A stretch of DNA of 63,562 nt, filler included, from Stramenopiles sp. TOSAG23-6 (GCA_900128565.1; 6 parts of 6 records of this genome joined end to end with filler, not necessarily neighbours in it); one strand, 5' to 3'; shown: positions 3,341 to 55,817, counted from the whole stretch's first letter. The notes: generated by a model not told the origin, from the sequence alone. Program-made: numbers and translations.

Positions 3341-3821
3341 TTTATGTTTGGCTGTTGGTCTTACAGCCTATTTTGATAAGTATATAAGAGATTGGGTTCC
3401 TTTTGCAGCAGTTGCTTTTCTTATTGGACATGGGTTAACAACAACAGCACTATCAATTGTTTCATCTGCATCGGAAGGTCTGTATGTTTTTTTTTTTAAT
3501 TTCGAATTTATGAATTTTTTTTCGTACGAAATTTTGTACCTAACAAATTTTTTATGATTTTTTTTTGAAATATTTTTCCAAAATACCTTATTATTGGATT
3601 TGAAAAGTATAGTCAAAAAATGCGCCGATCTTTCCCATTAATATATGAAAAATTAAACCGTCTCAAAGAAGAAAGATTTATACGGACTATGTATGTTTTA
3701 TTTTTTTTTTAACAAAAAAATCGAATTTATGTTTCGTACGAAAGTTTGTACCTAACAAATTTTGATTTGTTTTTGAAATATTTTTCCAAAATACATAGAC
3801 TTTGAGAATGATGGATTTTGA
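3341..3821 (+). CDS. C-terminal fragment of a choline transporter-like (CTL/PNS1) membrane protein
   Basis: Exons 3341-3481, 3589-3690 and 3797-3821 give AFLIGHGLTTTALSIVSSASEG-LIIGFEKYSQKMRRSFPLIYEKL, which resembles the PNS1/CTL C-terminus. Confidence 0.55.
3482..3588 (+). other. Family intron with GT-CT ends and a CT/CT duplication
   Basis: ggt CT|GTATG...CCAAAATAC CT|t att att gga gives EG-L-IIG in frame. Confidence 0.75.
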
Positions 3822-4081
3822 ATTTTTGAATCTTTGAATTTTTGATTGACAGATGTATTGCATATAATTTGTTTCCATCGGTTTCCATACACAATTTAAA
3901 TTCCAAGTAATAAAATCTAAATATATAATATTATATAAAATATTCAAAGTGAACCACTTGAAACAACTAAATTGTTTCGCGTTGTTTTACGGTTTTACGG
4001 TTTTACGGAGGGGTTACTGTTACGGGGTTTACGACTCATTGGAAACCTATTGCTTATAAGGTTGTTTTGCTCATTCTTATT

Positions 4082-4594
4082 CTATGATGAACTACGAAGT
4101 TGCCTCCCAACCTTCTCCTTTACTGCCTTTACTAAGGAAATCCGACGCTTTCGATAAAATGGTGAAATTGCTACCTCGTTCATATGATAAAGCCCATAGG
4201 CTATTGGAAACCCATACCTGTTTGATTTATCATCTTGAGTCAAAGGTGTGCGATTATCTAGTAATAGTTTCTCATTAGTGAGATCAGGGATATTATACTT
4301 CCAGAGTCGCGATGTATTTGGTGATCGGGGAGATTTTGGTGTTGGTCGACCCAATTCCTCGTAGATATAGTCTAAATTACCTAAATTATTGTCTAATTTT
4401 AATTTTTCTTGAATAAGTCCATTAAGTATCGCAGTACTTTGTTTTTTATTGTTATCTGGAAAACTCACTACTTTATATGTAGCAGAAGTCTCGGTACCTC
4501 CTCCGGTAACTACTATGAACCTGAGGAGGAAGTACCCCAGGCCTATGCACAGTGCTCCAATTAATAATATTGCATTCGTCACAGGATACGGCAT
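4082..4594 (-). CDS. Hypothetical protein with N-terminal membrane anchor
   Basis: 170-aa ATG-started ORF with an N-terminal hydrophobic helix, divergent from the ING gene. Confidence 0.55.
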   Translation of the reverse strand: MPYPVTNAILLIGALCIGLGYFLLRFIVVTGGGTETSATYKVVSFPDNNKKQSTAILNGLIQEKLKLDNNLGNLDYIYEELGRPTPKSPRSPNTSRLWKYNIPDLTNEKLLLDNRTPLTQDDKSNRYGFPIAYGLYHMNEVAISPFYRKRRISLVKAVKEKVGRQLRSSS

Positions 4595-4946
4595 TTAACC
4601 GTAGAGCTCTATATTAATGTGTGAAGAAGCGGACTCTAGCTAGAGAAAAAAAACACAAATTGAAGTCAGCTCGTGCGAGCCAGGCAAGCAAGCTGCAAAA
4701 CCAACCAATGTTTTTTTTTGTCTTTTGTTTTTTTGGCGCATTTGTCATCCGGGTCCGGGTACCCTCAAAAAATTTCGCGACCTAATTTTTTTTTTACCAT
4801 GATGACGTCTCTGCGGGCTAAACGCGGGAAGAAAAGTTAGAGTAAAAAAGCAGCTAGATTCATCTTTGAAGATGACATTGTGTTTTGAAATTCCTTCTGA
4901 ACGGAAATAGGAGCGTCATAGTTGTAGTTAGATATTGTTGAAAGAA

Positions 4947-6023
4947 ATGGCACAAAACGCAACGTATCTAGAGGAGTATCTTGATGATATTTCATCCGTT
5001 CCGAAAGAAATTAAACGTAATTTTAACTTGATGCGTGAGTTGGACCAAAATACTGTCGTTCTCCAGCAAGAAATAGCCACCCTTCGTAGTTGCTATTTGG
5101 AACGAGCGAAATCACGACTAGATGCTCAGAATAATGTAGATACCAACAAAGAAGAATCTTCTGGACGTGGCGGTAAAAAGCTCACTGCTCGAGAAAAAGC
5201 GAAATCTAATAGAAACTCAAAATCAAAAGGAGGGAACGATAAAAAAAGTGGAAAGGACTTGGCGGCTCTTGTACGAGATGAAAAAGCCCTCGAATATATA
5301 CAAAAACAACACCAAAAAGCAATGTCAAATGCAGAAGAAAAAGTGGCGATTGCTGCACAAGCTTATGATCTTGTTGATAGAGCTATTCGTGAACTAGACC
5401 AAAAGTTGCAGAAATTTGAAACCGAGCTTCAACAGGGAAAATATGCTGTTCATAATATAGATGAGAATGATGCAAATAATGAAAATGTGTATGATGGTGA
5501 TGATCAATTACATTCTCCAGCTGGACCACTGAAAGGTCTCAAACGGCCACGACCCGGATCTTCTTGGGAGGATTTGGGTTACGTACAAGTTTTACGTGGT
5601 TTACCAGGATTAGTTCCAAAGCCTGTGACTGTTAGTAGAAAGAGTAGTCTTGCAACTACATCAAGTATTTTAGCCTCAAATGTTAGCGATCGATCGTCTA
5701 TATCTGCAAATGTAAATTTTGTGTCAAATAAAGCAAATGGAATTGTCGCTATACCTGCTCTAAGTAGTTCCGTTGTGGGTGTTCAACCAACTAGATTGGT
5801 TGGAGAAATGCCAATCGACCCGAATGAACCTACCTACTGCTTCTGCAACAGAGTTTCATTTGGTGAAATGGTTGGTTGTGATAATGATGATTGTGAGATT
5901 GAGTGGTTTCATTATGCTTGTGTTGGTTTAACTGAGCAGCCTAAGGGTAAGTGGTACTGTCCTCAATGTGAAGCTATCATGGCAGGGGCAGCTCAGAATA
6001 AGAAAAAAAAAGGAAGAAGGTGA
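4947..6023 (+). CDS. ING: Inhibitor of growth (ING) family PHD-finger protein
   Basis: N-terminal ING helix ([27 protein letters not shown]) and C-terminal PHD ([38 protein letters not shown]...KWYCPQC). Intronless. Confidence 0.95.
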
Positions 6024-6380
6024 TGTTTCTTAAAATCTAATTCTACTAGTATGTAAATTGAGTAATTATATCCATGTATAAATTCTATAAAATTCCCTTT
6101 CAGCGTTTTACTATTACTAATAAATGTAAAATACGTCATGTAGGACTCCTAAATTGATCAATTTTACACATTTTTTTTTCATTTTTTTTCACATTTCGCA
6201 TCATTCTTGTCTTTTTTAGACTCGTAGTAGTCCACGATATAGATTCTGAAATCGAATTCGATATAGCGTAAGCTTCGCGAGTCTCAAAAAAAACTTTCCG
6301 TCTTCCTCCGACTTTTCATTTGCTGGAGCTTTGTGCAATGAATCTCATAAATTGATAAGCATTAGATCATTTCACAAAAA

Positions 6381-9527: not shown

Positions 9528-10529
9528 TTAATTACACCCAGGTGCAAACACTGGTTTTCCTTCACATGATTGCCATTTGTGAGGAGTACATGCACAACAA
9601 TTTTGAAAGAAACCAGCTTGATACTGACCTGTAGCATATGTATTTTGGAAAAATATTTCAAAAAAAAAAAAACTAGAATTTGTTAGGTACAAAATTTCGT
9701 ACGAAAAAAAAATTTGGAATTTGAAAAAAAATAAAACATACATGTTCCTTCTGGACAAATGTACTTACAGTGTACATCCATTTTATCACATTTAGTACAA
9801 CACCCTGATGGATCATCATCACACCATGGAATATTAATTGGAATAAAGCCAGGTGTTTTGCTGCACTCTTTTACATGGATTATGAAAAATATTTCAATAA
9901 AAAATTCGTTAGGTACAAACTTTCGTACGAAAAAAAAATTCGATTTTTTTGTTAAAAAAAAAAATAAAACATACATGGTTATTGCAGTCCACAGGTTGCA
10001 AGGGTTCAGCACATTCGAGACCTTTAAATCCAGCATTGCACATATTTTGTGAAAAAATATTTTTCTTTTTTAATAGTTAGGTACAAAATTTTCTATGAAA
10101 AAAAAAATGACATATTTTTTTTTTCACTAAAAAAAAATTGTTAGGTACAAAATTTTCTATGAAAAAAAAAAAAGATCAAAACATACATACATTTTCCATT
10201 ACTACAAGTACTATTGTCATTGCAGTTTACTTCAAAGCAAGGATTATGCTCGAGAATGGCTTGCTCGAAATTTTTTACAATTTGCTCATCGTCGATTAAC
10301 TCGGTAATGGAAGTAAGGCGATATTGTATTCTTGCAGGAGCCTCATGAAAAGTTGTAATCCATGTATTTTGGAAAAATATTTGAAAAAAATCTAAAAAAA
10401 AATGTTAGGTACAAAATTTCGTACGAAAAAAAAAAGTTAAATTTGAACTTGTGAAAACGTACATTTGTTCCAGTTTGAAAGTTCCGAAAGTAAATCTGGA
10501 TCTCCACCAATTAGTACTGTTTCAACAAC
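9528..10529 (-). CDS. MACPF/perforin-like protein C-terminal part with EGF-like and Cys-rich domains, 5' partial
   Basis: Spliced sequence VLIGGDPDLLSELSNWNK-W-ITTFHEAPARIQYRLTSITELIDDEQIVKNFEQAILEH fits the MACPF C-terminal pattern. It is followed by EGF-like CSNGKC-M-CNAGFKGLEC. Four GT-AT family introns (e.g. 10362-10462). Confidence 0.7.
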
Positions 10530-10589: not shown

Positions 10590-10689
10590 NNNNNNNNNNN
10601 NNNNNNNNNNNNNNNNNNNNNNNNNNNNNNNNNTTAATTAATTAANNNNNNNNNNNNNNNNNNNNNNNNNNNNNNNNNNNNNNNNNNNN
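10590..10689. other. Artificial contig linker
   Basis: N-run + TTAATTAATTAA (stops in all frames) + N-run, 100 nt. Confidence 0.97.
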
Positions 10690-11672
10690 TCTTTAGCTTC
10701 AGCAAGTCGTTTAGCTTCAATTCGTTCTTTAGCTTCAGCAAGTCGTTTAGCTTCAATTCGTTCTTTAGCTTCAGCAAGTCGTTTAGCTTCAATTCGTTTA
10801 GCTTCAATTCGTTCTTTAGCTTCAGCAAGTCGTTTAGCTTTAATTCGTTCTTTAGCTTCAGCAAGTCGTTTAGCTTCAGCAAGTCGTTTAGCTTCAGCAA
10901 GTCGTTTAGCTTCAGCAATTCGTTCAAGTTTAATTCGTTCTTTAGCTTCAGCAAGTCGTTTAGCTTCAGCACGTTCTTTAGCTTCAATTCGTTCTTTAGC
11001 TTCAGCACGTTCTTTAGCTTTAATAGCTTTAATTCGTTCTTTAGCTTTAGCACATCTTACCAAGTCTTCAGCTTTCTGAATAACAAACCTGGCTGATTCA
11101 TTTTCAACTATCCCCCTACTTATTCTCTTCGCAACTTGTTCTTGTTTTTCTTTGTTGGCAATAATTTTCCGTTGCGAGTTGTCATTTCGTGTTTTTTTCA
11201 CATCACCAGACGGATGAAATGTTGGTTTCAGGTTTTCTTTCTTTGGGGAGTTTCTTTTTCTTCTCATACACATTGCTCCTATCGAAAAATTTTGTGTTGT
11301 GTCCATATATTTTGAATCATTAGAACGAATGTGAGAAGAAGATTTTCCAAGTGTCTGTTCAGCAGTAGTTCTCGACTGAATCTGCTGAGATTTCAATTGA
11401 CGACTTTTTGTTGGGAATCTGTTTGTTGGATGTTTTTTTGTAATCATACATGATTCAGGTTTCTTTTTTTTCAAAATACATGAAGCACCTATAGACACTT
11501 GATGTACTTTTCTTCTTTGCTGCCTTAACTGCTCCAAAGCAGCACCATCCATAGCAAAATCATCCAAAGGAAGTTTATTCGACTTGGGTTTTCCGCCACC
11601 AACTCGAGCCATGAATGTATTCCATTCGTTGGCGTCCCGTCCTGTCATACTGCCAGCAATTGCAAAAAACAC
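10690..11672 (-). CDS. Hypothetical protein with AEAKRL/AEAKERIE charged helical repeats, 3' partial
   Basis: Long ORF with 18-33-nt tandem repeats at 10690-11050 running into the contig end. Start codon uncertain. Confidence 0.65.
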
Positions 11673-11989: not shown

Positions 11990-14900
11990 ATGTCAGGATT
12001 ACCTTCACACTGGGAAGAGCAGTTTGACTCACAAAGTGGTAGGAAATTTTACGTGAATCACGAAACTCAAGAAACGTCATGGGAACCACCTGTCCTTGTC
12101 CCCTCGGTTACGAGTTCTCTTCCAGCTGGATGGGAGAAAGTTGTTGATGCGGATGGTCGAGAATTCTATGTTGATCACGTTAATCAAGTCACATCGTGGG
12201 AGCGTCCATCTATTGAGGCTCACAGTTCAGCACCGTCTATGAATCCTGAGTTGAATAATCCTCATCTCCGACAGGCAACAAGTGGAAGTTCATTTATGAA
12301 CGGCGACGCCACTGTTGGTCCTGATGGATTAAATCACACCCAACCAATGATAGATGCAGATTCTAGTCTAAAACATCATAGTGGTTCGTGGGATATTGGT
12401 GAAGTTGTGCGAATCAAATTGACAATGTTTTCATGGAAAATCGCTGTTATTTTATCCTTTAATGATGTGACGTCAAACTATGTTGTTCTTGTAGAAGATG
12501 GTCGAACACGGGATATTTCTGTTGAAACTACACTTCATCAAAAGATTCCTAAATTTTCTGAATGGGTAACTTCAGCATTACAACTGTTATCTATCTCTAT
12601 TAACTCAGATATGATGACAGACCAGTCAAGATTAAATGCTCAAGTTGTTATTTTAAATACGATTGGACAAAAGTTCCAAGAAGAAGGAAAAAAATCTTTA
12701 CCTCAAAATGAAAAACTGAATGTAATATCTGCATTTGATAATAATAAAGGAGTTCCACTACTTTCGCATTGTTTGTCAACAAGTCAAGGATTACGGCAAT
12801 ATGACGTCACTGCTGCGTCTCTCTGTGCACTTCAACATATTTCGTTATTTCGTTGTGGTTCTTTAAAAATAAGAGAAAAGAGTCAAAGTGAGAAGTGGGT
12901 ACAGTTATTAATCGCAGAAAATACGATTTCTGATTTGTCTTTGTCATGTCAAATTGATAAATCAAACATAAAACTTCCTGCTTTGCGTACTTTATACCAT
13001 TTGGCTCATATGTACGTGTTCAAACCTGAATACCTAACGCCTACATTCATTGTTGTACCTGAATTATTAATTATTTTTTTTTGAAATATTTTCAAAAATA
13101 CAGTCCAATTGTTGGTGAAAAAATATCTTGTTCAAAGGAAGGTTTTACTTCAATTTGTGAGAGTTTACTTGAACCAGATTTTCAAAATATTGTTATTTCT
13201 TTACTGTTTGAGTTATTAAATGCTGACAATCAAAATCAGAATAAAAAAAATGAAAAAAAAAGTAAAGTTTTGACTGCTATACGGAGAGCTCGTTGTGCAG
13301 AGTATGTGTGTGTCGTTATTGACTCATGTGATGATGAACATTTGTTACTACAATTACTAAAATCATTGCAAATACTAATTAAATCAGGTTTACAAGGTGC
13401 AGCTGCTCTACGTGCTGCTAATGGTGTAGTTACTTTGATTAATGTATTACAAAAATTGAATGTTCAACGTGAGTCGAGTAGTAGTAGTAGTACAAATATA
13501 GCAGAAGTTAGAAATATTTCTATGAGTATGTTAGCGTCTGCTGCTGTCGATCAAGCTGTGGCTGCAACACTTTTAGATAATGGTGCTGCTGAATTAGCTG
13601 TTAGAGCATGTGATCCAGGTACAACAGGAAATTCTTCTCTCTCAGTAAAACAGGCGTTAGAATTACTACAAGCTATGGCTACTATTGAACCATCTGCAGT
13701 CATTGCTGCTGGTGGTTTACTTTTAGCTATTGATATAGTGACTGCAAAATCAACATTATTGTCTACTTGTAAAAAAACTAAAAAAAACTCTAAAAAATTA
13801 ATGAAAAAAAAGAAAAATGTAATATTACAAGCAGCTCTTCATCTTGCTGCATCTTTATCTATTTCACAAGAAGCAGGAAAACTATTTCGTGATGCTGATG
13901 GATTTACTGTATTAATTGAAATATTGCATAAAGATTGTTCTAATAGTGTAAAAATAGTAGCTATTAAAATATTAACAGTACTTTGTTTAACAGATAATGA
14001 AAATATTTCATGTGCAGTGGAAGCAGGAGCAGTTGCTGCATGCTTACGTTGTGATGATATCAGTAGTGATTTGGAACTACGTGATAAGGAATTATTAGCT
14101 GCTTTGTTACAAGAAAGTGATGTTATGCTGATTGAGTTATCTCGGATTGGTTGTAATGAATCAGAATTAGAATCATTGGCTAAAGGATTAGTTTCTATTT
14201 TAGGTGCTTCTACTTCTATGAGTGGTCAAAACAAAATTACTCGTAGTGCAGCAGCATCTGCATTGTATTCCTTTGTATCAATTTCTGTCAATGATTTTGA
14301 AGAAATGTCAAATGATTATGAATATTCTGAAAAATCTCATTATTCTACAATCAAAATGCGTGTGTCTGCCTTAGCTAGAGTATCACCAGTACCTTCTCTA
14401 TTATCATTACTAAAAACAGGAGATATAGCTGAGGGTGCATTACGTACTCTACAAAAATTGAGTGTTGATTCTACATCTGCTGCTGCGATGCAGAGTTTAC
14501 GAACAGTACCTATGGTTGCTGCTTCATTACCATCATGGTCTTTTGATTTACAAGCGATTGGGTTACAACTAATACATTCTTTACTATCTAATGTAGGAAA
14601 TACATCGAAGCCATTACAGCCTGCTGATTTGAAGCAAGTCAATAATGCATTGCTTGAATCTTTACAATCAGACGATGTACAATGCGCTGCAGCTGCCGCT
14701 CGGTTAGCTAGAGATCTTTCTTTTGCACCACAGCATAGATTTAGTATGCGTATATTAATTCCTGCTTTTGTGAATTTAATTCGTCCAAAACCTGGTTTAA
14801 CAGGTGAAGCAGCATCCATTGCAGTTGCTACATCTGTTGATATTTGTGCAGCATTAGTACATATATGTAGTGAAGCAACATCTGCTATTACTGTTGTAGA

Positions 14901-17900
14901 AGTAGACAATGGTGTGGCAATATCAAGTTTAATATGTTTATTATCAGACTCGAGTGAAGCTGTATGTTTTTATTTTTTTTCAATTTTTTTCCAAAACATT
15001 TTTTTTTTTTTGGTAAAAAAATTTTGTACCTAACAATTTTTTTTTTTTTTTGGTAAAAAATTTTGAAATATTTTTTTAAAATACATGTACGTGATGCGTC
15101 TCTGCATACTATTGAAACTTTATGTACATCAACTCCTGTTGCACGTCGTGTGATATTAAATAATGGCGCAGCACCTCTTTCTGTACTTTTACATTTATTA
15201 CCAAATGAAGAAAATTGTATGAATTATATAGGAAATTCTCTAAAAAATTCAATGCGAAGTCGTGCCATGTCAATTATTCGATTATTGTGTTTAGAAAAGG
15301 AATTAGCAAAATCTGTTTTACCTACAATTCCTGGTTTAATTCAACAGTTACTTGGAGCATCAAAAGCTGAAATGACTTTGAATTCACAAAAAAAGGAAAA
15401 CATGGAAAATGATAATTTTGAAATTTCTGTAACAAAAATGGAAAACATGGAAAATGATATGCCTGTAACATATTTACTCTCTACTCTTGAATCAACAGTT
15501 TTATGGGATTGTATTGCTCATTCTGCTGCTGTAGGTGTGGCTTTATTTCTAATAGAAAAAAAAGATTGTGATACTCAAAAAGCAAATGAATCAATTTCTA
15601 TAATGTGTAATGAACAACCAAATACTGTTCTAAGACGATTAATTCAGTTGGATACTAATTCTAATACTCATATGATAAATGATCATTTAAATGATCATCG
15701 TAGAACAAATTTTTCTAATCATTTGACAACTTCAAATAATACAGTTGGCATCTCAGGTGTTATGCGATTGTTAGGAAATAATAATGAAAATGTGAGTAAA
15801 GCAGCCTCCTCTGTTGTATTTGTATGTGCTGAACATTCAGATGGTCGTCGGTATATACTTCAATATTTACCGATTTTATTACGTTTATTATCCTCGTTTT
15901 CTGCCAATATTGCAACGTCAGCTTTAACAATCGTTCATAAATTAGCAATGATAAAATCTACAGTATCATCATTTGATTCATCACAAGTATTAAATAATGT
16001 AGGAAATTATGATAATACGTTAGGTGCTGGTACAATTGAAGCTGTAGCTGATGCTGAATCATTTTGGTATACATTAATTTCACCTGAAGATAATCAAGGA
16101 AGTGTAATAACAGACACAAAAAACAAAAAAAAATCTCAAGTTGATATTAGAAAATTAGCTTTGGATAGTTGCGTGGCAGTTATAGCAAGGAGAGGGTTAA
16201 CAGATGAACAGAAAATAATGGCCGCGGAACTTCTCGCAGCTTTAGTACAAAAATTAAGTACATATGAAATTGTTTATGCTAACCCTAACCCTGATAACCA
16301 AACACAAAAAACACAAAATAATCAAAAAAGTTTTTCTTCCCTTGCGTCATCTTCACCATTATTGGCTCAAAGTATTCCTCCATTATTATCAATTCTTCCC
16401 ACACGTCCTGGTTTAGCCATGCCTGCTCTTGCTTCACTTGTCATGGTGTCCTCACGATGCGCATCTCGTTTACGTCAGGATCCTTCTGCACTTCGTAATT
16501 TATTGTTGACTATGCGTGATGATGATACTCATAAAAATGTTGCCTTACGTTTATTACGTGGTTTATTACGACCTGTTGATAATTCTGAAAATAATTCTAC
16601 AAATTCAAGGTGTTTAGTCAATTCATTGATGACTAAACCACCTAGAGCTGCTGTAGATGCTTTAATAAAGGCAGATGGTCTTTCTGCTGTATTGAGTGTA
16701 TTATCTTCATATAGTAGTAATATTGATGTAATGCAAAATGGGTTATCCGTATTATTTGCTGTAGCTTCAGGTTCTGTCAGTGGAAGACGAAAAATAATTG
16801 AAAAAGAAAAAATTATTCATCACTTGATTTCAGTTTTTAAAAATGAGATGTATGAAAATCAAGATGAAAATCAAGATGAAAATCAAGATGAAAATCAAGA
16901 TGAAAAACAAGATGAAAAACAAGATGAAAATCAAGATGAAAATCAAGATGAAAAACAAGATTTGAGTGTTGAAAATGAAAGTCAAAAAAAATTGCACAAA
17001 CAATCACAAAAATCACAAAAATCAAAAAAATCACGTATTTTATCTTGTACCGCATCAGAATTAATGTCATGTTTGTCTGAAGTCGGTAATACGCGAACAG
17101 TTTTGTGTCAACAATCAAGTTTTATTCCTTCAATATGTGATTTAATAATTTGTTCCGTTGAAGACATTACAACGTTTATGTGTATAGATTCTACTATACA
17201 TACAACAGATGTATTTTTATCTTTAAAAACTATTCACGCATGTTTACGTTCAATTTATAATTTATCTGGTAATATTGAAATGTCATGTCTTACATCGACA
17301 AGTGTTTGTATATCTCGTGTATCATGTGTATTATCTACGTTATTGAAATACAAAAAAAACTCTACTGGTAACCCTAACCCTAATAAGAAAAATAATGAAA
17401 AAATTAAAATCATTTCAAATATTACAGATTTTTCAAAGGTTGTGAATGGAATGCTCTTGCTTTGTATACAAACTTTGCATAATATTTCGCTATGCGCTGT
17501 GACGAAACATTCACAAAAATGTGTTTTAGATGATGTATATAAAATTATCAAAAATGAATTAAATGAATGGCGATGTTCAGAAACTGCTGGTATAATAGAG
17601 TCAGCGACACGTTTTACATTACATTGTGCGAAAAGAAATCAAGAAATAATATCTGGAAATTTGATACAGAATTTATTGCATAGAAATACGTTTGATAATT
17701 TTTCTAAAATTTTGGTTAAGCCAAAACAAAACGATACAGTAAATACTTTTGGTGATATACAATTAGCACAAGACAGTATCTTGGATTTGCTTCATTTTCT
17801 TGTATTAGTGTATGATAGTGCACATAAACTTGCAAGTCGACATGTAATTCTTGTTGGTAGTGTGAGAAAGATTGCAATTACGAAAGGTCACATTTCAGGT

Positions 17901-18780
17901 CCAAAAGCTGTTCGATTTTTGAAATTATTAGGTGTCAATCCACCATATGATTCTCCAAATCTTCAAATAAAACTTGAATTATCACAAGACGTAGAAAAAT
18001 CTGTAACAAAAACGTCAAATACAAAAAAAATACATACTGAAGTGAAGAGGCCTATTGCGAGAAAAATAGCTCCACCTCCTCCCTCTTTTGGCACACTACA
18101 ACAAACATCTCGAGGGAGTGTACATGAAATCAATAAGAAGCCACAACAACAACGTGTTCGTCCTATAACTCCACCACATGTTAGAGAAGAAAGGATGTAC
18201 GTTTTATTTTTTTTCAATTTTTTTCCAAAATTTTTTTCATAGTACATTTTGTACCTAACAATTTTTTTTAGATTTTTTGAAATATTTTTCTAAAATACAT
18301 GCGTCTTCGTCGAAGATTAGCATTACAATCATCAGCAAGTTCTTCAAGTATTACAAATGAAGTAGTGACTAGTAGAAGAAGAAGAAGGCGAATCATTAGT
18401 GATGATGAAGATGATGATGATGATGATGATGATGAAGATGATGAAGATAAACAAAATGAAAAATCTAAAGTATCAATAGTGGAAAACAAAGTACTTTCTA
18501 CATCAAAAACTACAATGAATAAAATAAAAACTTTTACAATGGATGAATCTGTCCTTTATTCTGGCGCGGATGGCACGAAATCTTTAGCTATTGTTACTGC
18601 CGTTCACACTGATAGTTCTGATGGTCCTTATTATACAATTCGTCTACCAAATGGTAGAGAAAGACAAACATTAGGTATTCGGTTATCAACTCCTCCCGCT
18701 GAGATGTTAATACATTCAAATATAACAAAGAAATCTGCTTCACCAAATACAACACAATATATTCCGTATACTAATCAGAC

Positions 18781-18818
<38 letters not shown>

Positions 18819-19888
18819 ATACACCACAACAACAACAACAATATACACCACAACAACAACAACAACAACAATATACCCAACCACCACCACCACCACAACA
18901 ACAACAACAACAACAACAACAAAATATTCAAACAGATACTGAACCAAAAACATTTGAAGACAAAATCACTCGTTTGCAGTCTTTAGGCTTTACTAAAGAA
19001 GATAGTGTTCGTGCATTGACGACAGCAAAATTTGATATGAATGAAGCTGCTTCAATCTTATTATCTTCCTCTACAACAACACCTTCTAATTCAGTATCAA
19101 ATTCTACACCAAACACAATTTCAACAAATACGTCGCATCAACTAGATATTGGTATGAGTAATTCTACAAATTCTACAAATACAATGTATCCTAATTTTTC
19201 TACATCTGAATCATCAAAAAGTTCAGTTTCAGCAAATGTCATTCAGGAGGCAATTAATGAAGCAAAGAAGCAAGAAATCGAGAGAGAAAATGAGGAAATG
19301 GCGAGAAAATTACAACGACAGTTTGATCAAGAAGCAAAAGAAGATCAAGAAGCAAAAGTAATTACTACAGATTTTGGTATAAAAGGAATGCTTCTCAAAC
19401 AGTCAAAATTCAGAAAAGCATGGCGCAACAGGTTTGTGTGGTTGGATGGTACAAAATTACGTACTTATACTGAAGATATTGCATCAAGTGCTACGACAGA
19501 TAATTTTCGTGATGAATTTGAATTGACTGAAGCATCAACAGTTGAAGAATTTAAAAATAATGTAAATGAGTTTGCATTTCGTATTACAAATGTTGGTAAA
19601 GAGGGGAAAGAATTTGTTATCTTCGCAGCATCGAGTGAAACAGGTTTGCGTAAGTGGAGTTCTGCTGTACGCAAAGCATTCTCTATACAAAAAAAACGTA
19701 ATCAAAGTGAATTTTTAGCAGCTAATCGTGAAAAAAGTATTCAGTTAGAAGCGATGGGATACTCAAATAAAGAGTGTATGGCTGCTCTTCATCAAGCAAA
19801 TGGTGAGTTAGATGGTGCAGTTGAGTTGTTATTAAATGGAGAAGTTGATCTTTCTGTTCTTTCCGTCATTGGTGATGATAATAATAAT
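11990..19888 (+). CDS. Large WW-WW / ARM-repeat / UBA / PH / UBA protein, 3' end uncertain
   Basis: Two WW domains (LPSHWEEQFD...TSWEPP; LPAGWEKVVD...TSWERP), long ARM-like region, UBA (LQSLGFTKEDSVRAL), PH (KGMLLKQSKFRKAWRNRFVWL), second UBA. Introns 13012-13103 (GT-AG), 14962-15086 and 18197-18300 (GT-AT) join the ORFs in frame. Confidence 0.75.
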
Positions 19889-19906
19889 GTACGTTTTTCA
19901 AAATTG

Positions 19907-19954
<48 letters not shown>

Positions 19955-19964
19955 TTTTTTTTTG

Positions 19965-20010
<46 letters not shown>

Positions 20011-20017
20011 TTTTTCC

Positions 20018-20056
<39 letters not shown>

Positions 20057-20071
20057 TTCTTCAGAATACAT

Positions 20072-21219: not shown

Positions 21220-21319
21220 NNNNNNNNNNNNNNNNNNNNNNNNNNNNNNNNNNNNNNNNNNNNTTAATTAATTAANNNNNNNNNNNNNNNNNNNNNNNNN
21301 NNNNNNNNNNNNNNNNNNN
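21220..21319. other. Artificial contig linker
   Basis: N-TTAATTAATTAA-N. Confidence 0.97.
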
Positions 21320-30654: not shown

Positions 30655-30756
30655 GTATGTTTTAAAAAAAAAAAATTGAAATTTTTTTTTCGTACGAAAA
30701 TTTGTACCTAACAATTTTTTTTTTTTTTTTTTTTGAAATATTTTTCCAAAATACAT

Positions 30757-31760: not shown

Positions 31761-31812
31761 TGTTTTATATGAATTTCTAATTTAATTTTTTTTTCATACG
31801 AAATTTCGTACC

Positions 31813-31912
31813 NNNNNNNNNNNNNNNNNNNNNNNNNNNNNNNNNNNNNNNNNNNNTTAATTAATTAANNNNNNNNNNNNNNNNNNNNNNNNNNNNNNNN
31901 NNNNNNNNNNNN
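31813..31912. other. Artificial contig linker
   Basis: N-TTAATTAATTAA-N. Confidence 0.97.
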
Positions 31913-31970
31913 TTTTCATACGAAATTTCGTACCTAACGAATTTTTTTTTGAAATATTTTTTCACAACTT

Positions 31971-42398: not shown

Positions 42399-42498
42399 NN
42401 NNNNNNNNNNNNNNNNNNNNNNNNNNNNNNNNNNNNNNNNNNTTAATTAATTAANNNNNNNNNNNNNNNNNNNNNNNNNNNNNNNNNNNNNNNNNNNN
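42399..42498. other. Artificial contig linker
   Basis: N-TTAATTAATTAA-N. Confidence 0.97.
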
Positions 42499-43137: not shown

Positions 43138-46100
43138 ATGACGACCACATCCGAAACTCCACTGTTGCGAGGGAACTCGAGTGTGAGTAAGAAGAAGCCA
43201 TTCTGGACAAAACAAAAAGTAATCATACTTGTAGTCTTTCTAGTGGTTGCAATATCTCTTGGTATTTTAATTCCATTGGTCTTCCTACGTTCAAAAAGTT
43301 CAAGTATTACCTTCACTGAGAGTTTTACGATCGTTGGAACATATGATCAAAACAAAGAATACTTGGAGGAAAAGAAAAAAATTCTAACTGTGGTAGAAAA
43401 GAAAGGGGGCAAAATTGTGAATGGAGTTAATGGTATTATAGCGTCAGATGGTTCTATTAAATTTACGTTTGTGATTGAGATCAGCAAAAAGAAAGACAAA
43501 AGTAAACTCAAAGAAGAGATTAAGCAGGAACTGGTTAGAGTAGTGCATGGCGGTGGTGTTGGAGATGTTGGTGGCAATGGTGGTGGTGGAGAAGAGATTA
43601 ATCAGGAACTGATTAGAGTAGTGCATGGCGGTGGTGTTAGTGATGTTGGTGGCAATGGTGGTGGTGGCAATGGTGGTGGCAATGGTGGTGGTGGTGGTGG
43701 CAATGATGGTGGTGGTGGTGGTGGTAGCGGTAGCAATGGTGGCGGTGGCAATGGTGGCGGTGCTGCTGCTGGTGCAGCACCAACACCAGCACAAGCAAAC
43801 GCAGAAGCAGATGCAAAAGCAGCAGAAGCAAACGCAGAAGTAGCAGCAAAAGCTGAGGNAGACGCAAAAGCAGCAGCAGAAGCACAAGAACAAGCAAATG
43901 CAGCAGCAACTGCAGAAGCACAAGCTGAAGCAGCAGAAGAAGCAAAAGCAGCAGCAGAAGCAAAAGCAGCAGAAGAAGCAAAAGCAGAAGCAGTGGCAGA
44001 ACCAAAAGCAGTGGCAGAAGCAGAAGTAGCGGCAGCAGAACAAGCTTTATTGGCAGCAAAAGCAGCAGAACAAGCAAAAGCAGCAGAACAAGCAAAAGTA
44101 GTGGCAGAAGCAGTGGCAGAAGCAGAAGAAGCACAAGCTTTAGCGGCAACAGAAGCAGAAGCAGAAGAAGCAAAAGCAGTGGCAAAAGCAGTGGTAGAAG
44201 CAGAAGTAGCAGTAAGCATTCAAGCTGCTCAACGTGGTCGTCAAGCAAGAGCAGAACAAGAACAACAACGACAAGCTGCTACAGTTATTCAAACTGTTGC
44301 CCGTGCTAATGCAGTTAGAGAACAAAAACGACAACATGATGCTGCTACACTCATTAATAATGCTGCTACAACTATTCAGACTGATGTACGTCGTCGTCAA
44401 GCAACAGCTTCAGTTCAACAAATGCAACAACAGAAAGCAAAAGCAAAAGCAGCAGAAGAAGCAAAAGCAGAAGCAGTGGCAGAACCAAAAGCACTGGCAG
44501 AAGCAGTGGCAGAAGAAGTAGCGGCAGCAGAACAAGCTTTATTGGCAGCAAAAGCAGCAGCAGAAGCAAAAGCAGCAGAAGAAGCAAAAACAGCACAAGC
44601 AAAAGCAGTGGCAAAAGCAGCACAAGCAAAAGCAACAGAAGAAGCAAAAGAAGCAAAAGCAGCAGCAGCAGTACGCATTCAAGCTATGTATCGTGGAGAT
44701 GTAGGAAGACGCAGAGCAGCAAAAAAAGCAGAAGAAGAAGCAGCAGCAGAAACACAACGACAAAATGATGCTGCTGCTACAAAACTTCAAGCTTTTCAAC
44801 GTGGCCGTAGTGCAAGAGCAACAGCAAAAGAAGCAGAAGAAGCAGCAGTACGCATTCAAGCTAAGTATCGTGAACACCTAGAAAGACGCGCAGCAAAAGA
44901 AGCAGAAGAAGAAGCAGCAGCAGAAGAACAAGCACAAGCTTTATCGGCAGCAGAAGAAGCAAAAGCCGCAGAAGAAGCAAAAGCAGAATATTTGAAAGTT
45001 CAAATGAGTGTTCTTCGTGAAATGTGTGGAGAATTTAAAGATGAAGACTATTGTAAGGAAGACGACGAATTTGCAATTGAAAAAAACACAATCGGTGAAA
45101 AATGTGAGTACACATGTGATAAGATAAACATTATATTGTTGAGATTAAACCCAGCGAACAAACTAAAAGAATTGCCCATTTCTATTGGTCAACTGAAAAA
45201 TCTTAAAACACTCGATGTACAAAATAATCAACTAACAACTATACCTGATTCTATTGGTAAACTGAAAAATCTTGAAAGACTCGATGTATCAAATAATCAA
45301 CTGACGACTATACCTGATTCTATTGGTAAACTGAAAAATCTTGAAACACTCGATGTATCAAATAATCAACTAACAACTATACCTGATTCTATTGGTGAAC
45401 TGATAAATCTTGATATTCTCGATGTATCAAATAATCAACTGGAAACTATACCTGGTTCTATTGGTGAACTGAAAAGTCTTACATTTTTTTCTGTTGATGG
45501 TAAAATATCAAATCTAAAAGACATTGTAGAGAAACGGAGAAGACTAAATTTGAATAAAACCTTCATATTTGAAGGTACACTGAAATTTACATCCATTGAA
45601 TCATATGAATTACAAAAGTATTTGACTCAAATAAATAAAGAAAACGGTGAAGTCTCAATTGAAACTTTGGAAAAATTTGGAACCACAGTAAAAACTGGTG
45701 TTTGTGATGACGAATTGACCATAGAAGGAACGTTAATGACAGGCTCTGCTTTTGATCTAGTTTTCCCTGACGAAAGAAAAGAACCAGACGCTTATTATCC
45801 TTTATCTATAACAATAACAAGTAAGAGCAACCCCGCCGAGAAAAAAAAAAATGCATTAATATTATTCACTTCAAAGGATGATTCTGGGGCTTTTGGAAGT
45901 TATTTCAAAACTTATAACGGGGTTGTATCATTGTCAACTTGTAGTATGTGGAAATGTCTTGCAAAGAATCATAATATTGTTATCAAAAGTGCTCTGTCAA
46001 TAAAGCAAATGACGCAAGAGGTTCAAAAAAAAAAGCTTGATTACTTGCGAATTTCCGCACATGTACGTTTTCATGATGATTTCCAATTTTGTTTTTTCAA

Positions 46101-47276
46101 AAACTTCCGTATCTAACAATGTGTTGTTTGTTTGACATATGTTTTCACTGACATGGTAATTACGGTGGAATTCAAATGAATGAAAATCTAATATTGGGAT
46201 TAGATTATTCTAAGGAGACTGAAGATTTTTGGGAAGCTGTACAAAACAACCTAAATTCTGATGGTGTTATCTATCTTCATGCATGTTTAACTGCATCAAA
46301 CAGCACAGAAAGGCAAGAAAAGGAATTGGAGACCGCAAACATGGATTATTTTGAGAGGACCATTTCATTTGAAGATGCAATAAATGAGGATGCACATCCC
46401 ATTGATTTTGCTACGTATGTCCGACGAAAATTACCAGGGAAACATGTATTTGCTAATGTAACTGAAGCACATAATAGAGATGATGAAGTTATTGACACAA
46501 GAAATAATCCACAATGTCTTCCTGGAAATGGTCAATATGGCTATGGTGATGAAAAATTTGGGATGAAGGAGACTATATCATACCATGGAAAGACACGAAT
46601 TCCAATATGTTCAGTAGCAGATAAACAAAATGAAGAAGGACGAAAAACAAGTGGTTATTTATGCTTTGGCGAATGTGTATCTTGGGTTGGAAACGACACC
46701 GCCAAGCAGAAGTCAGTGGAGGAAGCTTGTGGAGCACCGGCAAACGAAGCGGGGCACACGTCTGCGTCAACGACCGGCGCTGGGGCCCAATCAAGGGTGC
46801 ATCATGAACCATTGGTCGTTAAGAAAAAATACCAAACACATCCACTGGGTAGTTGTAAACTAACAAATGATTCACTTTGGACTACAATTCAAAACTGCAA
46901 CCACGTCGCCCTCTACGCTGCCCACTACGCTGAATCTAAATTTGAGGAAAACATACAAAAACTAACTTTGCTATCTTCGGGTGGAATAACAGAGGAGTTG
47001 CGAAAAATTACAGAAGATTACATCAAATGTGCAAGAGAAGCATTCAATTCTGGTAATGATCAAGATAATCAAGGTAAATGCTTTACAAAAGTTAGAACTA
47101 ATTATCATAATTATGACCGTAAAGAAAATATTAAAACGAAAATGTTCCGCCCAGTTTGTCATTTCAATGAAGAAAAAATAATACAGTTGCAAAGAAATCG
47201 AAAGAAACGCAAAGAGAAACGGATATATGCTCCACTCCAAAATCGAAGCGAAAAGATAACTTTTGAGAATTTATAG
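43138..47276 (+). CDS. Membrane-anchored protein with Gly-rich, Ala/Glu/Lys-rich, IQ-like, LRR and DUF4347/clan-CD-like domains
   Basis: N-terminal TM; IQ-like motifs (RIQAMYRGDVGR, KLQAFQRGRSAR); 23-aa LRRs (LDVSNNQLTTIPDSIGKLKNL); spliced LRISAH-G...VIYLHACLTA. GT-AT intron 46063-46154. Confidence 0.8.
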
Positions 47277-50696: not shown

Positions 50697-52290
50697 ATGA
50701 TCATTTCACTTGTTATATTATCTCTACTGAGCAATCAATATCATCATGGACTCATCATTGTTGTTGCAAGCTCAGGAAATCATCTACAACATTCTGTTTG
50801 TATGGAATCTGATGATATGACGTGTGTAAATAAAAACCCAAATAATCCAAATAATCCAAATAGTTCAAATAGTGTAAATAGTGTATTCAATCAAAGTGAA
50901 CTCTCATCATCACATTCCTCAACATCAACGGATTCAATGAAATTCATGTATGATCCAATGAATGATAAAGTACTTGATGATATTATCATAAAACGAATAA
51001 GTATCTCTCCCAAAGTTTACACAGTTGACAACTTTGCTACAGAAGCAGAAATGAATGAATTATCTGATATCGAAGAGTATTGGTTAGATAAAGCGTCAAC
51101 TCATACGGGAACGACGTTTGAAATGCCTATTACCATGGACTATACACCAATGCGAATCGCTGCTCGAATGGAAGCGTTACTAAATTTAAATAATAGAGAT
51201 TCTACATATAATCCAATTACTTTACGTACAAGGCTTTCGAAAAAGGGGGATTTTTTTCCGCCACATTATGTTCGTTTTTTTTTGATAACCCTAACCCTAG
51301 GTATACTANTTATTTTTTCATACAAAATTTTCATACTAACAATTTTTTTTAGAATTTTTTTTTNGAANTTTTTTTTTTGTACCTAACAAATTTCAGATAT
51401 GATATATTTGTCTAACAAAACAGGATTGGTGGGAAACAACAGATCGAATAGAACCATCCAAGAAAGTTAATTTAATTGTAACTGCCATGTTAAATATGAA
51501 AACTACAAAGGAGGTATTTATTATTATTTTTTTTTCAAATTCTAAATTTTTTTTTTCATAGTAAATTTTGTACCTAACAATTTTTCAAAATTTTTTTGAA
51601 ATATTTTTCCAAAATATATGGTGGTGAGACAGTTTTTGTAAAGGCTCAACCAACACCAATTAAAATTCCACCGATTAGAGGTCAACTGGTACGTTTTTCT
51701 AAATTTTTCCTAGTTTTTTTCTATTTTTTTTNATATTTTTTTTTTTTTTTTTTGTTTTTGGTAGGAAATTTTGTACTTAACAACAAAAGACATTTTTTTT
51801 TAAATGAAATAGTTTTGATCATGAATTTAAAATGTATTATGTGCAATGTATTATGTACAATGTATTGTTTAATTTTTGTTTTGTATACTTTTTCTACATT
51901 GAAAAACTATCAAATGTTTACATTTTATCAAAAAAAAAAAAATTCAAATGTTTGAATTTTTTTTTCATACGAAATTTTGTACCTAACGATTTTTTTTTTT
52001 TTTTTTGTGAAATATTTTTTACAATAAATATTTTCTGGTGGAATTGTAATGAAAATGGAGATAAAGATTTATTTTCACAACATCGAGGTGAAATGATAAA
52101 AAAAGGTACAAAATTTACTACAACACAATTTTTTTATAGTTCTTTGGAAAATTGTAAAAAACAATCGGAGTTTTCGGAAATTTTCCGATGTATCCCCGAT
52201 GGAAAAACTCCGTGTGTTCCTCGAATTCAACTTGAACAGTATTGGCAAAAATCTCAANTTTTTNAANAAAAAANCGATNCANGNCTATGA
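50697..52290 (+). CDS. Prolyl 4-hydroxylase-like 2OG-Fe(II) dioxygenase; 3' end uncertain
   Basis: Signal peptide; ISISPKVYTVDNFATEAE; spliced PPHY-D (intron 51270-51423); KE-GGETVF; SQHRG..IKKGTKFTTTQF. Confidence 0.8.
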
Positions 52291-52983
52291 ACGAGACAAT
52301 GAAGACAATGAAAATATACTACAAACAAAATTACATTACAAAAACAATCAAAATTCTTTTTTTTTTCTTAATGAATTTGAAAGGAAAAAATATCGTAGGT
52401 GATTTTCATCATGAATTTCGGAATTTCGGAATTTTTTTTTTTTTTTTTTTTTTTTTGTTTTTTTACAAAATTTTTTCCCCAAAATTTTTTTTTTTTTTAA
52501 TTTTGTATAATTTTTTTTTTTTTTTTTTTTTTTTTTTGGTATGAAAATTTGTACCTAACAAAAAAAATTTTGATTTTTTTTTTGAAATATTTTTCAAAAA
52601 TACATGAATATCAAATGTTGTATTCAAATGTTTACACAACTTGATTACATAACTAGAAGCGAACTTCTTTATGGTACGTTGTAATCTGTACAATATTGAT
52701 TTGTTTTCCTATACAATTTTTACAATCTTTTTTTTTTTTTTTTTTGTTTTTACTACGAAATTTTGTACCTAACAAAAAAAAATCAAATTTGAAATATTTT
52801 TTCAAAATTCATATATGTGGGAAACAATGAATATCTCTTCTGGAGATAGTATATTACCTTTTAATAATGACTGGACTGGACATGTATGTTTTATTTTTTT
52901 TTTTCACAAAAAAATCGAATTTATTTTTCGTACGAAATTTTGTACCTAACAAATTTTTTAGAATTTTTTTTGAAATATTTTTC

Positions 52984-53083
52984 NNNNNNNNNNNNNNNNN
53001 NNNNNNNNNNNNNNNNNNNNNNNNNNNTTAATTAATTAANNNNNNNNNNNNNNNNNNNNNNNNNNNNNNNNNNNNNNNNNNNN
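52984..53083. other. Artificial contig linker
   Basis: N-TTAATTAATTAA-N. Confidence 0.97.
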
Positions 53084-53150
53084 AAAAAAATTGTTAGGTA
53101 CGAAATTTCGTACGAAAAAAAAATCGAATTTGAAAAAAAAATAAAACATA

Positions 53151-53988
53151 CATCCATTTCTGCAAGTCTCGTGATAAGTCGAATTGAAGATAGCACAGAT
53201 TCTTTTGATGCTCCTTTATCAAATAAACCTTCCATAAATACTTCAACGCATCCATCTTCAATAAATAATTCAGCAACACCAGAACTTTTACACAGTTGTA
53301 ACGAAGATCGAGAAATCCCAGCGGCGATATTTTTATTTTCCGGAAATTTTTGAAAAATGGAAAGCATTTTCTGAATATGCATATGATTACTCATGGCTTT
53401 TGGATTCTTTTGGGTACAAACACTAACAAGTTTCGTGACAGCTTTACAAGTGCTGTCTGAGGGATTTTTACAAGAAGATAAGGACTCCATTGCCTTCGCA
53501 AGGCAACCATCATTAACAATTTTGCCACAGAAACGTTTTCCATACTTAGGATGACCACACAATTGAGTTAAAATCTCACATATTGGCTTAAGTTTCTCGG
53601 CATCGCCAGCATATAACTCCAAAAGGTCATTCAGTAAATCTATCGAACCCTTTTCAACCATAGCTTCGCAGTTCAAACGCCAGTCATTATTTGGAGGACA
53701 CACAGCTTTTAAAAACACAGTGAGAGAATATTGACATAGTTGAGGAAAACTCTTATTTTTCTTTGCTGTATCAATAAATGACTGAATTGTGCGTTTCTTG
53801 CGTTGCTGTTGTTTTACAAGTTTTGGATCACCCTTGAGCCGACGTGCCCCTTTGCGAGGTCGTGGTGTATATAATACTGTCGTTGNTCGTGGTGGTGGTG
53901 GAGCAGTTACATCAAGCTCCTCCGGTGGTGGTGGAGGAGCAGATACATCAAACTCCTCTGGTGGTGGTGGAGGAGGGGGCGCCGACAT
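53151..53988 (-). CDS. Pro-rich N-terminus plus ARM-like repeat protein, first exon
   Basis: SAPPPPP repeats followed by a helical ARM-like region; ends at a family donor. Confidence 0.65.
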
Positions 53989-54238
53989 ATTATTGCAGTA
54001 TCACTTCTAGGAATGGCCAGGATATATAAATACAACAAGAATATATCTAGTATTGAAGACTGAAGGTAATTTTTACCTCTGGAATTACGAAAACCGTGGC
54101 GAAAACGAAAACAAAACACAAATAAATTTGACAGTTTTGAAACGGTACCGGGTAACAAAACTTGAAAAAAAACTTCGATATTGTCCGATTTATTATTGTC
54201 CTGTAAAAAATGATTCATTAAGAAAAACTTGTTATACA

Positions 54239-55817
54239 ATGTCAATGTGGGCTTCAACATTATTCCGCAAATTTGTTCCAAAGATAATCTTGAAGTTGTC
54301 AAAAACCAAGAAAAAAATGCTTGGTGCAAGCTTTGTCTTTTTTGTTCTCTCTTTTATAGGTCGTCTCCAAAAAGGTGTAATTAATCGAAAACCATTCTCG
54401 CAGTTTATGTTAGACTTGCGAGGAGGAAAAATTGCAGCGTTATCCATTGGTGCTGCTGGTTTAACGGCATCTACCATTACAGGAGCCACATATACGACGA
54501 TAACTTCATCGATGCTTCTTAATACTTGTGGTCCTGAAATTATTCGCCGCTTACTAACAGATAAAATTCCCTTTGGAACTCCAAAACCAGAATTCCGAGT
54601 GGGACCAATTATAATGTTACTTTTGCCTTTTATTTATCTCGCTGTATCATTAAAGATGATGCAGAGGCAATTAAACCCTCCATCTGGAGATGTTGGCAAG
54701 AAACAAAACGATTCGTCAGCTCTATGCAACGGCCCAACTTTTGATGATATAGCAGGAATGGATGAAGCTTTGACCGAGGTGAGAGAGATTGTTGACTTTT
54801 TAAATAATAGTGAAAAATATTGTAAAATTGGTGCAAAAATTCCAAAAGGAATTTTGTTAATTGGGCCATCAGGAACTGGAAAAACTTTATTAGCTCGATC
54901 TTTAGCTCAGGAAGCCCGCGTTCCTTTTTATTCTTGTAGTGCATGTACGTTTTCAAAATTGATTTATTGTTTTTTTTCGTACGAAATTCCGTACCTAACG
55001 AATTAAAAAAATATATTTTTTTCATATTACATCAGATTTTGTGGAAATTCTAGTTGGTCGTGGTGCTGCTCGTGTACGTGATTTATTCCAAAGAGCTACG
55101 GATTCTTCTGGTGCATCTATTGTTTTCATTGATGAGCTTGATGCTTTAGGTAAAGCGCGAGGTGGTCTTAATAGTAATGACGAAAGAGAACAAACATTAA
55201 ACCAATTACTCACTGAAATGGATGGATTTGATACAAGAGTTGATGAAAATGGTAATAAATTAGACCCGATTGTTATCATTGCTGCGACCAATCGGCCAGA
55301 AGTTTTAGATCCTGCGCTGATTCGACCAGGTCGATTTGATCGACACGTGGAAATTGGATTACCAAATGTTGTATGTTTCATTTTTTTTCAATTTCGAATT
55401 TATTTTTTTATAAAAATTTTGTACCTAACGAATTGTTTTTTGAAATATTTTTCCAAAATACTTGCAGGTAGAGAAGCTATACTTCGTGTACATTCAAAAA
55501 ATATAAGAATGGACCCAAACGTGTCTCTTCGTAAAATTGTACATTATATTCACTTTAATTTCGAATTTATTTATTTTTTGTACGAAATTTTGTACCTAAC
55601 AAAAAAAAAATATATATTTTTCACAATATATGCGACCCTCACTGAAGGTAAATCAGGTGCTGAGCTTGCAGGCATTATTAATGATGCAGCTTTACTTGCA
55701 GTTCGTTATGGACTTGAGCAGGTGAATTCAGTTTGTATGCAGGAGGCGACCACGCGATCTAATGCGTACATATCACATACGAAGTCGAAGTATAAAAAAA
55801 CAAATTGGTTGTTATAA
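54239..55817 (+). CDS. FtsH-like membrane AAA ATPase lacking the M41 protease domain
   Basis: [99 protein letters not shown]. Introns 54945-55032, 55371-55463 and 55539-55631. Start codon uncertain. Confidence 0.85.

Follow-up and report, generated by a model that had tools for sequence, protein, structure and literature searches.

Introns of probable introner origin, formed by copies of one short repeat family and ending mostly in AT

We analyzed a 63,562 nt stretch of DNA (the window) whose genes are interrupted by copies of a repeated element about 100 nt long. As judged from sequence, these copies are probably U2-type spliceosomal introns that arose from one family of short non-autonomous mobile elements (introners), with a 2 bp duplication of the target at insertion. 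Among 41 curated introns of this type, 29 ended in AT, seven in AG, two in TT and one each in CT, AC and TG. The repeat family, the removal length that keeps the reading frame, the ends other than AG and the excess of direct repeats at the flanks are observed directly; the pattern is real and beyond chance in the window, and the introner reading is well supported.

About 55 copies of the element were present, nearly all of them in the sense direction within open reading frames (ORFs), with the layout GTAYGTTTT…TTTCGTACGAAATTTTGTACCTAAC…TATTTTTCMAAATAY followed by two nucleotides (NN). An nhmmer profile made from an alignment of nine copies gave 55 matches at E<0.01 and 79 at E≤1 in the 63.5 kb. 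The consensus of the nine copies reads xx|GTAYGTTTT, a T-rich stretch, (AACAAAAAAATCGAATTT), TTTCGTACGAAATTTTGTACCTAACAA, a T/A-rich stretch, TTGAAATATTTTTCMAAATAY and xx. The motif GTATGTTTT occurred 25 times in the window against 1.87 expected. Motifs that are not splice signals were enriched as well: the internal motif AAAAATCGAATTT had 16 matches with at most one mismatch (1.5 expected), and the palindrome TTCGTACGAAA was found at 14 loci, which is 28 matches on the two strands against 0.03 expected. The best pairs of copies showed an identity of 0.89 across about 104 nt, and whole-intron copies lay in unrelated genes, the 41 curated introns being spread across many ORFs. Eight of the 16 sequence edges (contig ends, gap edges and window start) fell inside copies, in keeping with a dispersed repeat at which assemblies break. 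Every copy was in the sense direction in transcribed ORF chains except a degenerate one at 22821–22903 (+), detected by nhmmer (E=7.5e-6). It lies antisense to a 515-aa PPR-like ORF of the minus strand, which is translated through it (..LGTEFHTKKNEKK..). It resembles an antisense insertion that has been exonised, and its presence inside that ORF would fit insertion at the DNA level.

Instead of being copies of a mobile element, the introns might be old and ordinary, sharing only an extended consensus of unusual strictness and filled with AT-rich sequence, but this is quite improbable. Such introns would share one architecture, as nearly every intron in the window does, but internal motifs with no known splice role would not be expected so far above chance. 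Neither would an identity of 0.89 over about 100 nt, contigs breaking within copies, tandem internal duplications or an antisense copy. The comparisons support the view that the introns are copies of one dispersed repeat, related beyond their shared splice signals.

In one subfamily a perfect 12 bp palindrome, TTTCGTACGAAA, stands directly 5' of the branch box (3520–3531, 9695–9706, 30100–30111 and 11 more loci). It may bind a protein involved in mobility or form a small RNA hairpin. Partial internal duplications or nested copies, in which the branch-box segment or the 3' motif is present twice in tandem, were seen at 10042–10186 (−), 20253–20443 (+), 51689–52029 (+) and 25042–25237 (+).

The curated set comprised element-type introns that lay in the window from end to end and whose junction was set by exon-by-exon reading frames or by homologues. 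Codon phase was carried exon by exon through each gene, and the cuts were placed immediately 5' of the GTA and 2 nt past the end of the aligned element (element+2); in a few diverged copies the in-frame position nearest to the element end was taken. Copies at 3235, 30655 and 33272, where the frame conflicts with element+2, ambiguous copies at 22458, 19889, 56922 and 25437, and nine copies interrupted by a contig end or a gap were left out of the set. Removal of element+2 preserved the frame in 41/41 curated copies. Splicing at the RNA level is what we infer from these frames and from the homologues.

Eight junctions were borne out by homologues: one in the gene for glycyl-tRNA synthetase (GlyRS), four in IFT52 and three in the gene for an FtsH-like AAA protein, all on the plus strand. 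Flanking dinucleotides are given below as upstream exon/intron end. The GlyRS intron (38200–38303, TT/TT) was removed between ELWGI and ANR, where homologues read ELWGIA(D/N)R. The IFT52 introns all had AT/AT flanks. That at 29800–29970 (5' GTACCT) left the exons colinear with homologues, and those at 30058–30171 and 30345–30456 fell at VVGSxxM|FSD and RLRxC|LQE of homologues, respectively. Removal of the intron at 30898–31015 gave TD|ESVIYF, compared with TDEDVEYF in homologues. In the FtsH-like gene, the intron at 54945–55032 (AT/AT) was placed by the homologous SCSA-S-DFVEML, and at both 55371–55463 (TT/TT) and 55539–55631 (TT/AT) the homologue alignments were gapped by exactly 31 residues.

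The nearest labelled protein, P0121, has the EukProt name 'GSMAST32…' and is exon-identical to the window IFT52; the label suggests a MAST-3 stramenopile as the probable host. The P0121 model of this gene (29015–30662 (+)) forces GT-AG introns, skips 12 real residues (VLEKNFISYVNK) and ends in ..AVFPPCMF. It also retains nine intron-derived residues (IKKNIFPKY) that are absent from four aligned homologues. Evidently, non-AG introns went unrecognised when the model was built, and, judged from the alignment, the model with its forced GT-AG sites is visibly wrong.

The junction at 55539 is informative for the register of the cut. TT precedes this intron, AT ends it, and homologues have Ile or Ile-Ala at this place, so that it is the upstream TT that stays and the AT that is lost with the intron. 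Because of these residues the intron is GT…AT and not TT-GT…AC. The initial annotation had argued from the conserved I-A residues that the 3' copy is the intronic one, and the homologues agree that the upstream copy is the one kept in mRNA. If all boundaries were shifted by 2 nt, the introns would read NN-GTAYG…AATAC and would mostly be AT-AC introns; the acceptor, TAC|, would then be constant and the donor variable. Both readings give an identical mRNA where the flanks match, AT-AC is a known pair of intron ends, and a cut directly past TAC is also in frame at 20253, 30655 and 19889. Even so, the shift is very unlikely, as 55539 demands that the upstream TT be kept and the signals are of U2 type. 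U12-type introns have the donor /RTATCCTT and the branch site TCCTTAAC 10–20 nt from the acceptor. In the window introns the donor was GTAYGTTTT, with no ATATCC, and a branch box of the TACCTAAC type lay 32–57 nt from the 3' end in 35 of the 38 introns where the pattern matched. The window introns resemble U12-type AT-AC introns in that AT…AC termini are possible on the shifted reading and in that the intron at 946 starts with A and ends with C; they differ in the GT…AT boundary at 55539.

The last two intron bases equalled the last two bases of the upstream exon in 26/41 introns (AT/AT 21, TT/TT 2, CT/CT 1, AC/AC 1 and AG/AG 1). When the 3' dinucleotides were shuffled 200,000 times, the mean was 19.4 matches and at least 26 were reached in 0.2% of shuffles (p=0.002). 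All four of the TT, TT, CT and AC ends matched, and four such matches were reached in 0.0055% of shuffles (p=5.5e-5). These rare matches did not depend on choices made in curation: 38200 and 55371 were fixed by homologues, and 3482 and 946 by a single open frame. The one TG end, at 31128, has TT upstream. Apart from the self-complementary AT, no flank pairs were inverted complements, which argues against an explanation by RNA pairing and for a direct repeat. Copies were ranked by the mean of their identities to the three closest relatives, with two introns of more than 200 nt omitted; 13 of the top 14 had matching flanks. Median identity was 0.81 for matching and 0.71 for non-matching flanks (n=26 and 13; one-sided Mann-Whitney p=0.019). 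The concentration of matches in the most similar copies fits a duplication made at insertion and eroded later. On statistics alone, a target site duplication (TSD) appears to be the best explanation of the terminal dinucleotide.

The proposal that the intron-terminal dinucleotide tracks that of the upstream exon, made in the initial annotation, is thus borne out, and the cases it had described at 38200, 55371, 3482, 946, 34890, 55539, 14962, 34666, 741 and 13012 were as reported. Its TT/TT assignment at 22352–22458 (−) is possible, but a canonical AG|GT...CAG reading is equally in frame. It had also held that mismatched copies end in AT or AG. This was so in 14 of the 15 mismatches (AT/AG 5, AG/AT 3, TT/AT 2, TG/AT 2, CT/AT 1 and GG/AG 1), the remaining one being TT/TG at 31128. 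An introner transposon with a TSD as acceptor agrees with the repeat family and the direct flanks; the added claim that any 2 bp TSD is tolerated was overstated, as 36/41 ends are AT or AG.

Several points weigh against a duplication and against introner origin. Flanks differed in 15/41 introns, and the two TG/AT cases require two substitutions. Intron position −2 was A in 37/41, as conserved as the element's own positions, so AT may be part of the splice signal and not of the target. The exon context at the junction, C(16/41)-A(31)-T(33)|G(24), parallels that of the usual protosplice site, C-A-G|G, so that part of the AT/AT identity needs no TSD. That part could reflect splice-site selection or a palindromic CATG target, and AT could be both target preference and splice signal. 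Consistent inverted termini were limited to GTA/TAC (3–4 nt), and no transposase, longer copy, empty site or insertion polymorphism was seen. Three complete copies (3235, 30655 and 33272) were incompatible with element+2, and the local sequence ..AAAATACATGC occurred at both 30345 and 30655, where it was apparently cut differently. Curation was done by hand, on a single 63-kb window.

On these grounds one may consider repeat-family introns without any TSD, in which the terminal AT belongs to the element and its 3' splice signal, the exonic AT is a splice or insertion preference like AG|GT, and the TT, CT and AC identities have other causes. The conservation of A at −2 and of T at −1 (32/41), similar to that of neighboring element positions, the parallel of C-A-T|G with C-A-G|G and the differing flanks all speak for this, and the AC end accompanies an intron that starts with A, as the rule for first and last intron bases would have it. 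We nevertheless regard it as unlikely, because the four TT, CT and AC ends all equal the upstream dinucleotide and because the identity is direct, not complementary, and strongest among the most similar copies.

The splice signals were conventional except for the acceptor. In the curated copies the donor had G1 in 40, T2 in 41, A3 in 38 and T6 in 40, and GT in 40/41. The last 20 positions before the junction were strongly conserved, and at −1 there were 32 introns with T, eight with G and one with C. An AG between the branch box and the junction was skipped in 11 of the 33 non-AG introns examined, including the homology-checked intron at 30058, and at 55371 a CAG 5 nt downstream of the junction was unused. 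In the copy at 33732, TAC was changed to TAG and the frame set the junction at that AG. First and last intron bases were paired as G…T in 32, G…G in 8 and A…C in 1. The sole intron starting with A, at 845–946 (−) (ATACGT), was also the sole one ending in C (..GTACAC). It matches the rule relating first and last intron bases that is known from AT-AC introns.

We propose that three signals are supplied by the element: GTAYGTTTT as the 5' splice site, AAATTTTGTACCTAAC as an extended branch site, and a T-rich tract with the conserved 3' end TATTTTTCMAAATAY behind it. Insertion would duplicate 2 bp of target, in most cases an AT that stands between C and G. Cuts in the pre-mRNA would fall immediately 5' of the GTA and 2 nt past the last base of the element, so that the element and one copy of the duplication would be removed and the frame restored. 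The acceptor would not be read as AG but would lie at a fixed distance from the 3' motif of the element, with T as its last base in nearly every case (or else G, or C in an intron that begins with A). Both transposition at the DNA level and this mode of 3' site choice are what we infer from the features of the copies. A wider reading is more tentative and may well not hold. In a MAST-3-like spliceosome that no longer reads the acceptor AG, the site of the second step would be set by a ruler-like 3' motif on the mobile element, with G(+1)·U(−1) replacing G·G. A precisely removable intron, with the target duplication as its last two bases, would then result from any staggered-cut insertion. Almost every intron of the genome would come from one family, and canonical gene finders would fail for that reason.

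The inverted ends of the element noted in the initial annotation are real but minimal. Positions 1–3 paired with −3 to −5 in 39, 38 and 33 of 41 introns; position 4 paired in 19/41 without covariation and position 5 in 7/41. Folds of four copies as RNA (z-scores −2.1, −1.3, +0.6 and −0.1) gave no consistent end hairpin, an end helix (6 bp) forming only in an AT/AT copy. A structure-based account of the flanks was rejected, since a consistent end hairpin was missing and the complementary flanks it predicts were not observed.

Paramecium internal eliminated sequences (IESs) are cut from DNA at TA and have no branch site. The window elements are like them in being short AT-rich inserts in coding sequence, with short inverted termini and a 2 bp direct repeat of which one copy is kept. 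Removal from DNA as in ciliates is nevertheless most unlikely for these inserts, as is the alternative that nothing is removed and that the genes only seem interrupted through errors of amplification or assembly. Unlike IESs, the elements carry full spliceosomal signals, and their donor, branch box and T-tract keep a fixed spacing and are strongly conserved; all copies but one are in the sense orientation, and the same exons and inserts occur in the independent gene model P0121.

The remaining curated introns are given here by position, with the codon phase chain as basis unless stated otherwise. On the minus strand, AT/AT introns lay at 263–353 (3' end ...CCAATACGC.AT), 442–541, 9638–9741, 9875–9974 (3' end ..TAATCC.AT), 10042–10186 (with an internal tandem duplication, its removal restoring the Cys pattern C-x-C-x-x-G-F) and 10362–10462. 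Mismatched flanks were found at 609–741 (AG/AT), 27430–27589 (AT/AG) and 34549–34666 (TT/AT), and the intron at 34796–34890 was canonical AG/AG. The AC/AC intron at 845–946 begins with ATACG, and only frame f0 is open past its junction. On the plus strand, AT/AT introns were located at 2977–3076 (5' GTACTT), 3691–3796 (followed by a short last exon), 18197–18300 (1701 nt open), 20253–20443 (5' GTAGGT, with an alternative GT..AC cut starting 4 nt in and ending 2 nt short in the same frame), 32448–32551, 32975–33089, 33495–33614 (two in-frame AT options) and 46063–46154; those at 25826–25932 and 31377–31523 were set by reading frame. AT/AG introns lay at 2771–2870, 13012–13103 (1926 nt open past the junction), 25042–25237 and 51270–51423 (5' GTTCGT). 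The introns at 51514–51619 and 52399–52605 had AG/AT flanks, and TG/AT flanks were found at 52674–52812 and in a long intron with two element copies at 51689–52029. Single cases were CT/AT at 14962–15086 (3153 nt open past the junction), CT/CT at 3482–3588 (only frame f1 open past the junction), TT/TG at 31128–31229 (174 nt open) and GG/AG at 33732–33849.

Three exceptions on the plus strand were not compatible with element+2. At 3235–3340 the 106 nt of element+2 were out of frame, and 105, 102 or 108 nt would fit. In the IFT52 copy at 30655–30756 the homologous FPP-x-L-R requires 103 or 100 nt, not 102. The copy at 33272–33331 was without the 3' half of the element, and its in-frame ends lay in or just past TACCTAAC (..CCTA or ..AACA).

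Copies cut by edges were mostly recognised by nhmmer. One was cut by the window start (1–63 (−)) and two by contig ends (52878–52983 (+) and 53085–53154 (−)). A 3' part at a contig end (10528–10590 (−)) ends in ..AAAATAC.GT, a 5' part stands at a contig end at 31758–31812 (+) and a 3' part at a contig start at 31913–31967 (+). The copy at 56920–57003 (+), with the 5' end GCACGT, is cut by an N gap past which ..AAAATAC.AT follows at about 57240, and another 3' part lies beside an N gap at 61746–61802 (−). The contig ends at 31812 and 31913 overlap by about 22 nt within an element copy, comparable to the breaks of de Bruijn graphs at repeats.

The excluded copy at 19889 adjoins very long tracts of T and of A as well as a BRF1-like exon that is read in another frame. 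At 19900–20055 and 20072–20252 (+), tracts exceeding 100 T and 40 A stand between a UBA/PH-like ORF and this BRF1/TFIIB-like cyclin-fold exon. The region 19900–20252 could be a chimera of assembly or amplification, or a very degraded element.

The window comes from an AT-rich flagellate, has about 32% G+C and consists of six pieces of about 10.5 kb each. Spacers of the form N44-TTAATTAATTAA-N44 separate the contigs at 10590–10689, 21220–21319, 31813–31912, 42399–42498 and 52984–53083, and there are two further internal N gaps. The ORFs are long and eukaryotic in character. Three genes were named by homology (IFT52, GlyRS and the FtsH-like gene), and ankyrin, PPR and leucine-rich repeat (LRR) proteins were recognised by eye. 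The remaining named best matches were from stramenopiles and chytrids. Rfam and tRNA scans of the window gave no match, and hence no small nuclear RNA (snRNA) for inspection. Small DNA sequencing runs shared 0.89–0.91 of the words sampled from one stretch. Seawater metagenomes and metatranscriptomes shared only small portions of words, which is no evidence of habitat or expression. A metagenome scan with a 16-nt branch-box motif gave 118 loci with one match each and only two weak nhmmer matches, which is chance level and revealed no relatives.

A coding tandem repeat (..AKERIEAKRLAEAKERIEAK..) at 10690–11100 begins exactly at a contig edge, and further low-complexity coding repeats were seen at 17500–17600 (NQDE), 19000–19100 (poly-Q) and 59600–59800 (MNQQQ). 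Telomere-like CCCTAA(T)/TTAGGG units occur just past the stop codons of three minus-strand genes (at about 34260, 9420 and 27310). They likewise occur within some introns or ORFs, coding PNPNP (27540–27560, 22890–22910, 51285–51300 and 22180–22240). These units may be a 3'-end or regulatory motif.

If RNA data confirm these introns, the host would join a tunicate and a parasitic dinoflagellate as the third independent lineage with most introns derived from mobile elements and a relaxed AG rule for acceptors. The conventional donor and branch site isolate the acceptor step for study. According to Table 1 of PMC5778133, single-cell assemblies of MAST-3 with 18.9 and 21.1 Mb contain 3289 and 2694 genes, respectively, strikingly few beside the roughly 8000 in 32–33 Mb of MAST-4A. 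Non-AG introns may be a cause of the low gene counts in MAST-3, and re-annotation that allows GT…AT could recover much of the proteome of these abundant, uncultured ocean protists.

No report of introners or of introns of this kind was found for MAST lineages, the main texts of PMC5778133, PMC8163842 and PMC12614181 being silent on non-canonical introns; their supplements may hold more. Introners of other lineages offer closer comparisons. The relevant sections of PMC11282704 describe Micromonas introners with 3-nt TSDs and terminal inverted repeats (TIRs), in which the element gives one splice site and the TSD the AG. The families of Micromonas pusilla and Aureococcus anophagefferens are described there as forming canonical GT/GC-AG introns, their TIRs being clear and their TSDs 3 nt long. 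In the parts of the 2025 introner survey that concern selection, mainly non-canonical families were kept only with RNA support (PMC12130899). As portrayed in these sections of the two sources, those families share with the window introns near-identical short non-autonomous elements forming whole introns in unrelated genes, a short duplication at the exon/intron borders, and one splice site from the element with the other at or in the duplication. In the window, by contrast, the duplication is 2 nt, 34/41 acceptors are non-AG and the inverted ends measure 3–4 nt.

Introns of Fritillaria borealis are described as of MITE-like (miniature inverted-repeat transposable element-like) origin with the non-AG acceptors AC and AT (Henriet et al. 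2019, as cited in PMC11282704; summary in PMC13326754). A figure legend of PMC11282704 shows an exonic TAC as the duplicated target that forms the 3' splice site. A duplicated target as acceptor, which was the principle proposed in the initial annotation, is therefore already in print for this tunicate. As far as these accounts go, the donor in Fritillaria is also non-canonical (AG-AC, AG-AT), whereas the window introns have a GT donor in 40/41 and only the acceptor departs from the canonical form; strong GTAYGT, a yeast-like branch box and a stramenopile-like protist host are further differences.

The passages of PMC7789003 on Amoebophrya describe repeated non-canonical introns with direct repeats of 3–5 nt, hairpin-forming inverted repeats of 8–20 nt and no clear donor signature. 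Repeated introns, direct repeats over the boundaries and many terminal dinucleotides are common to both cases in that description, and the principle known from Fritillaria applies to Amoebophrya as well. Extended end pairing of the hairpin type of Amoebophrya and euglenids (8–20 nt inverted repeats, or +4..6 with −8..−6) was not found in the window introns, which have a 2-nt direct repeat, no end hairpin and a conserved donor and branch site. The window introns thus appear to be set apart from the known cases by a conventional donor and branch site, a putative 2-nt duplication, mostly AT acceptors and a stramenopile-like host.

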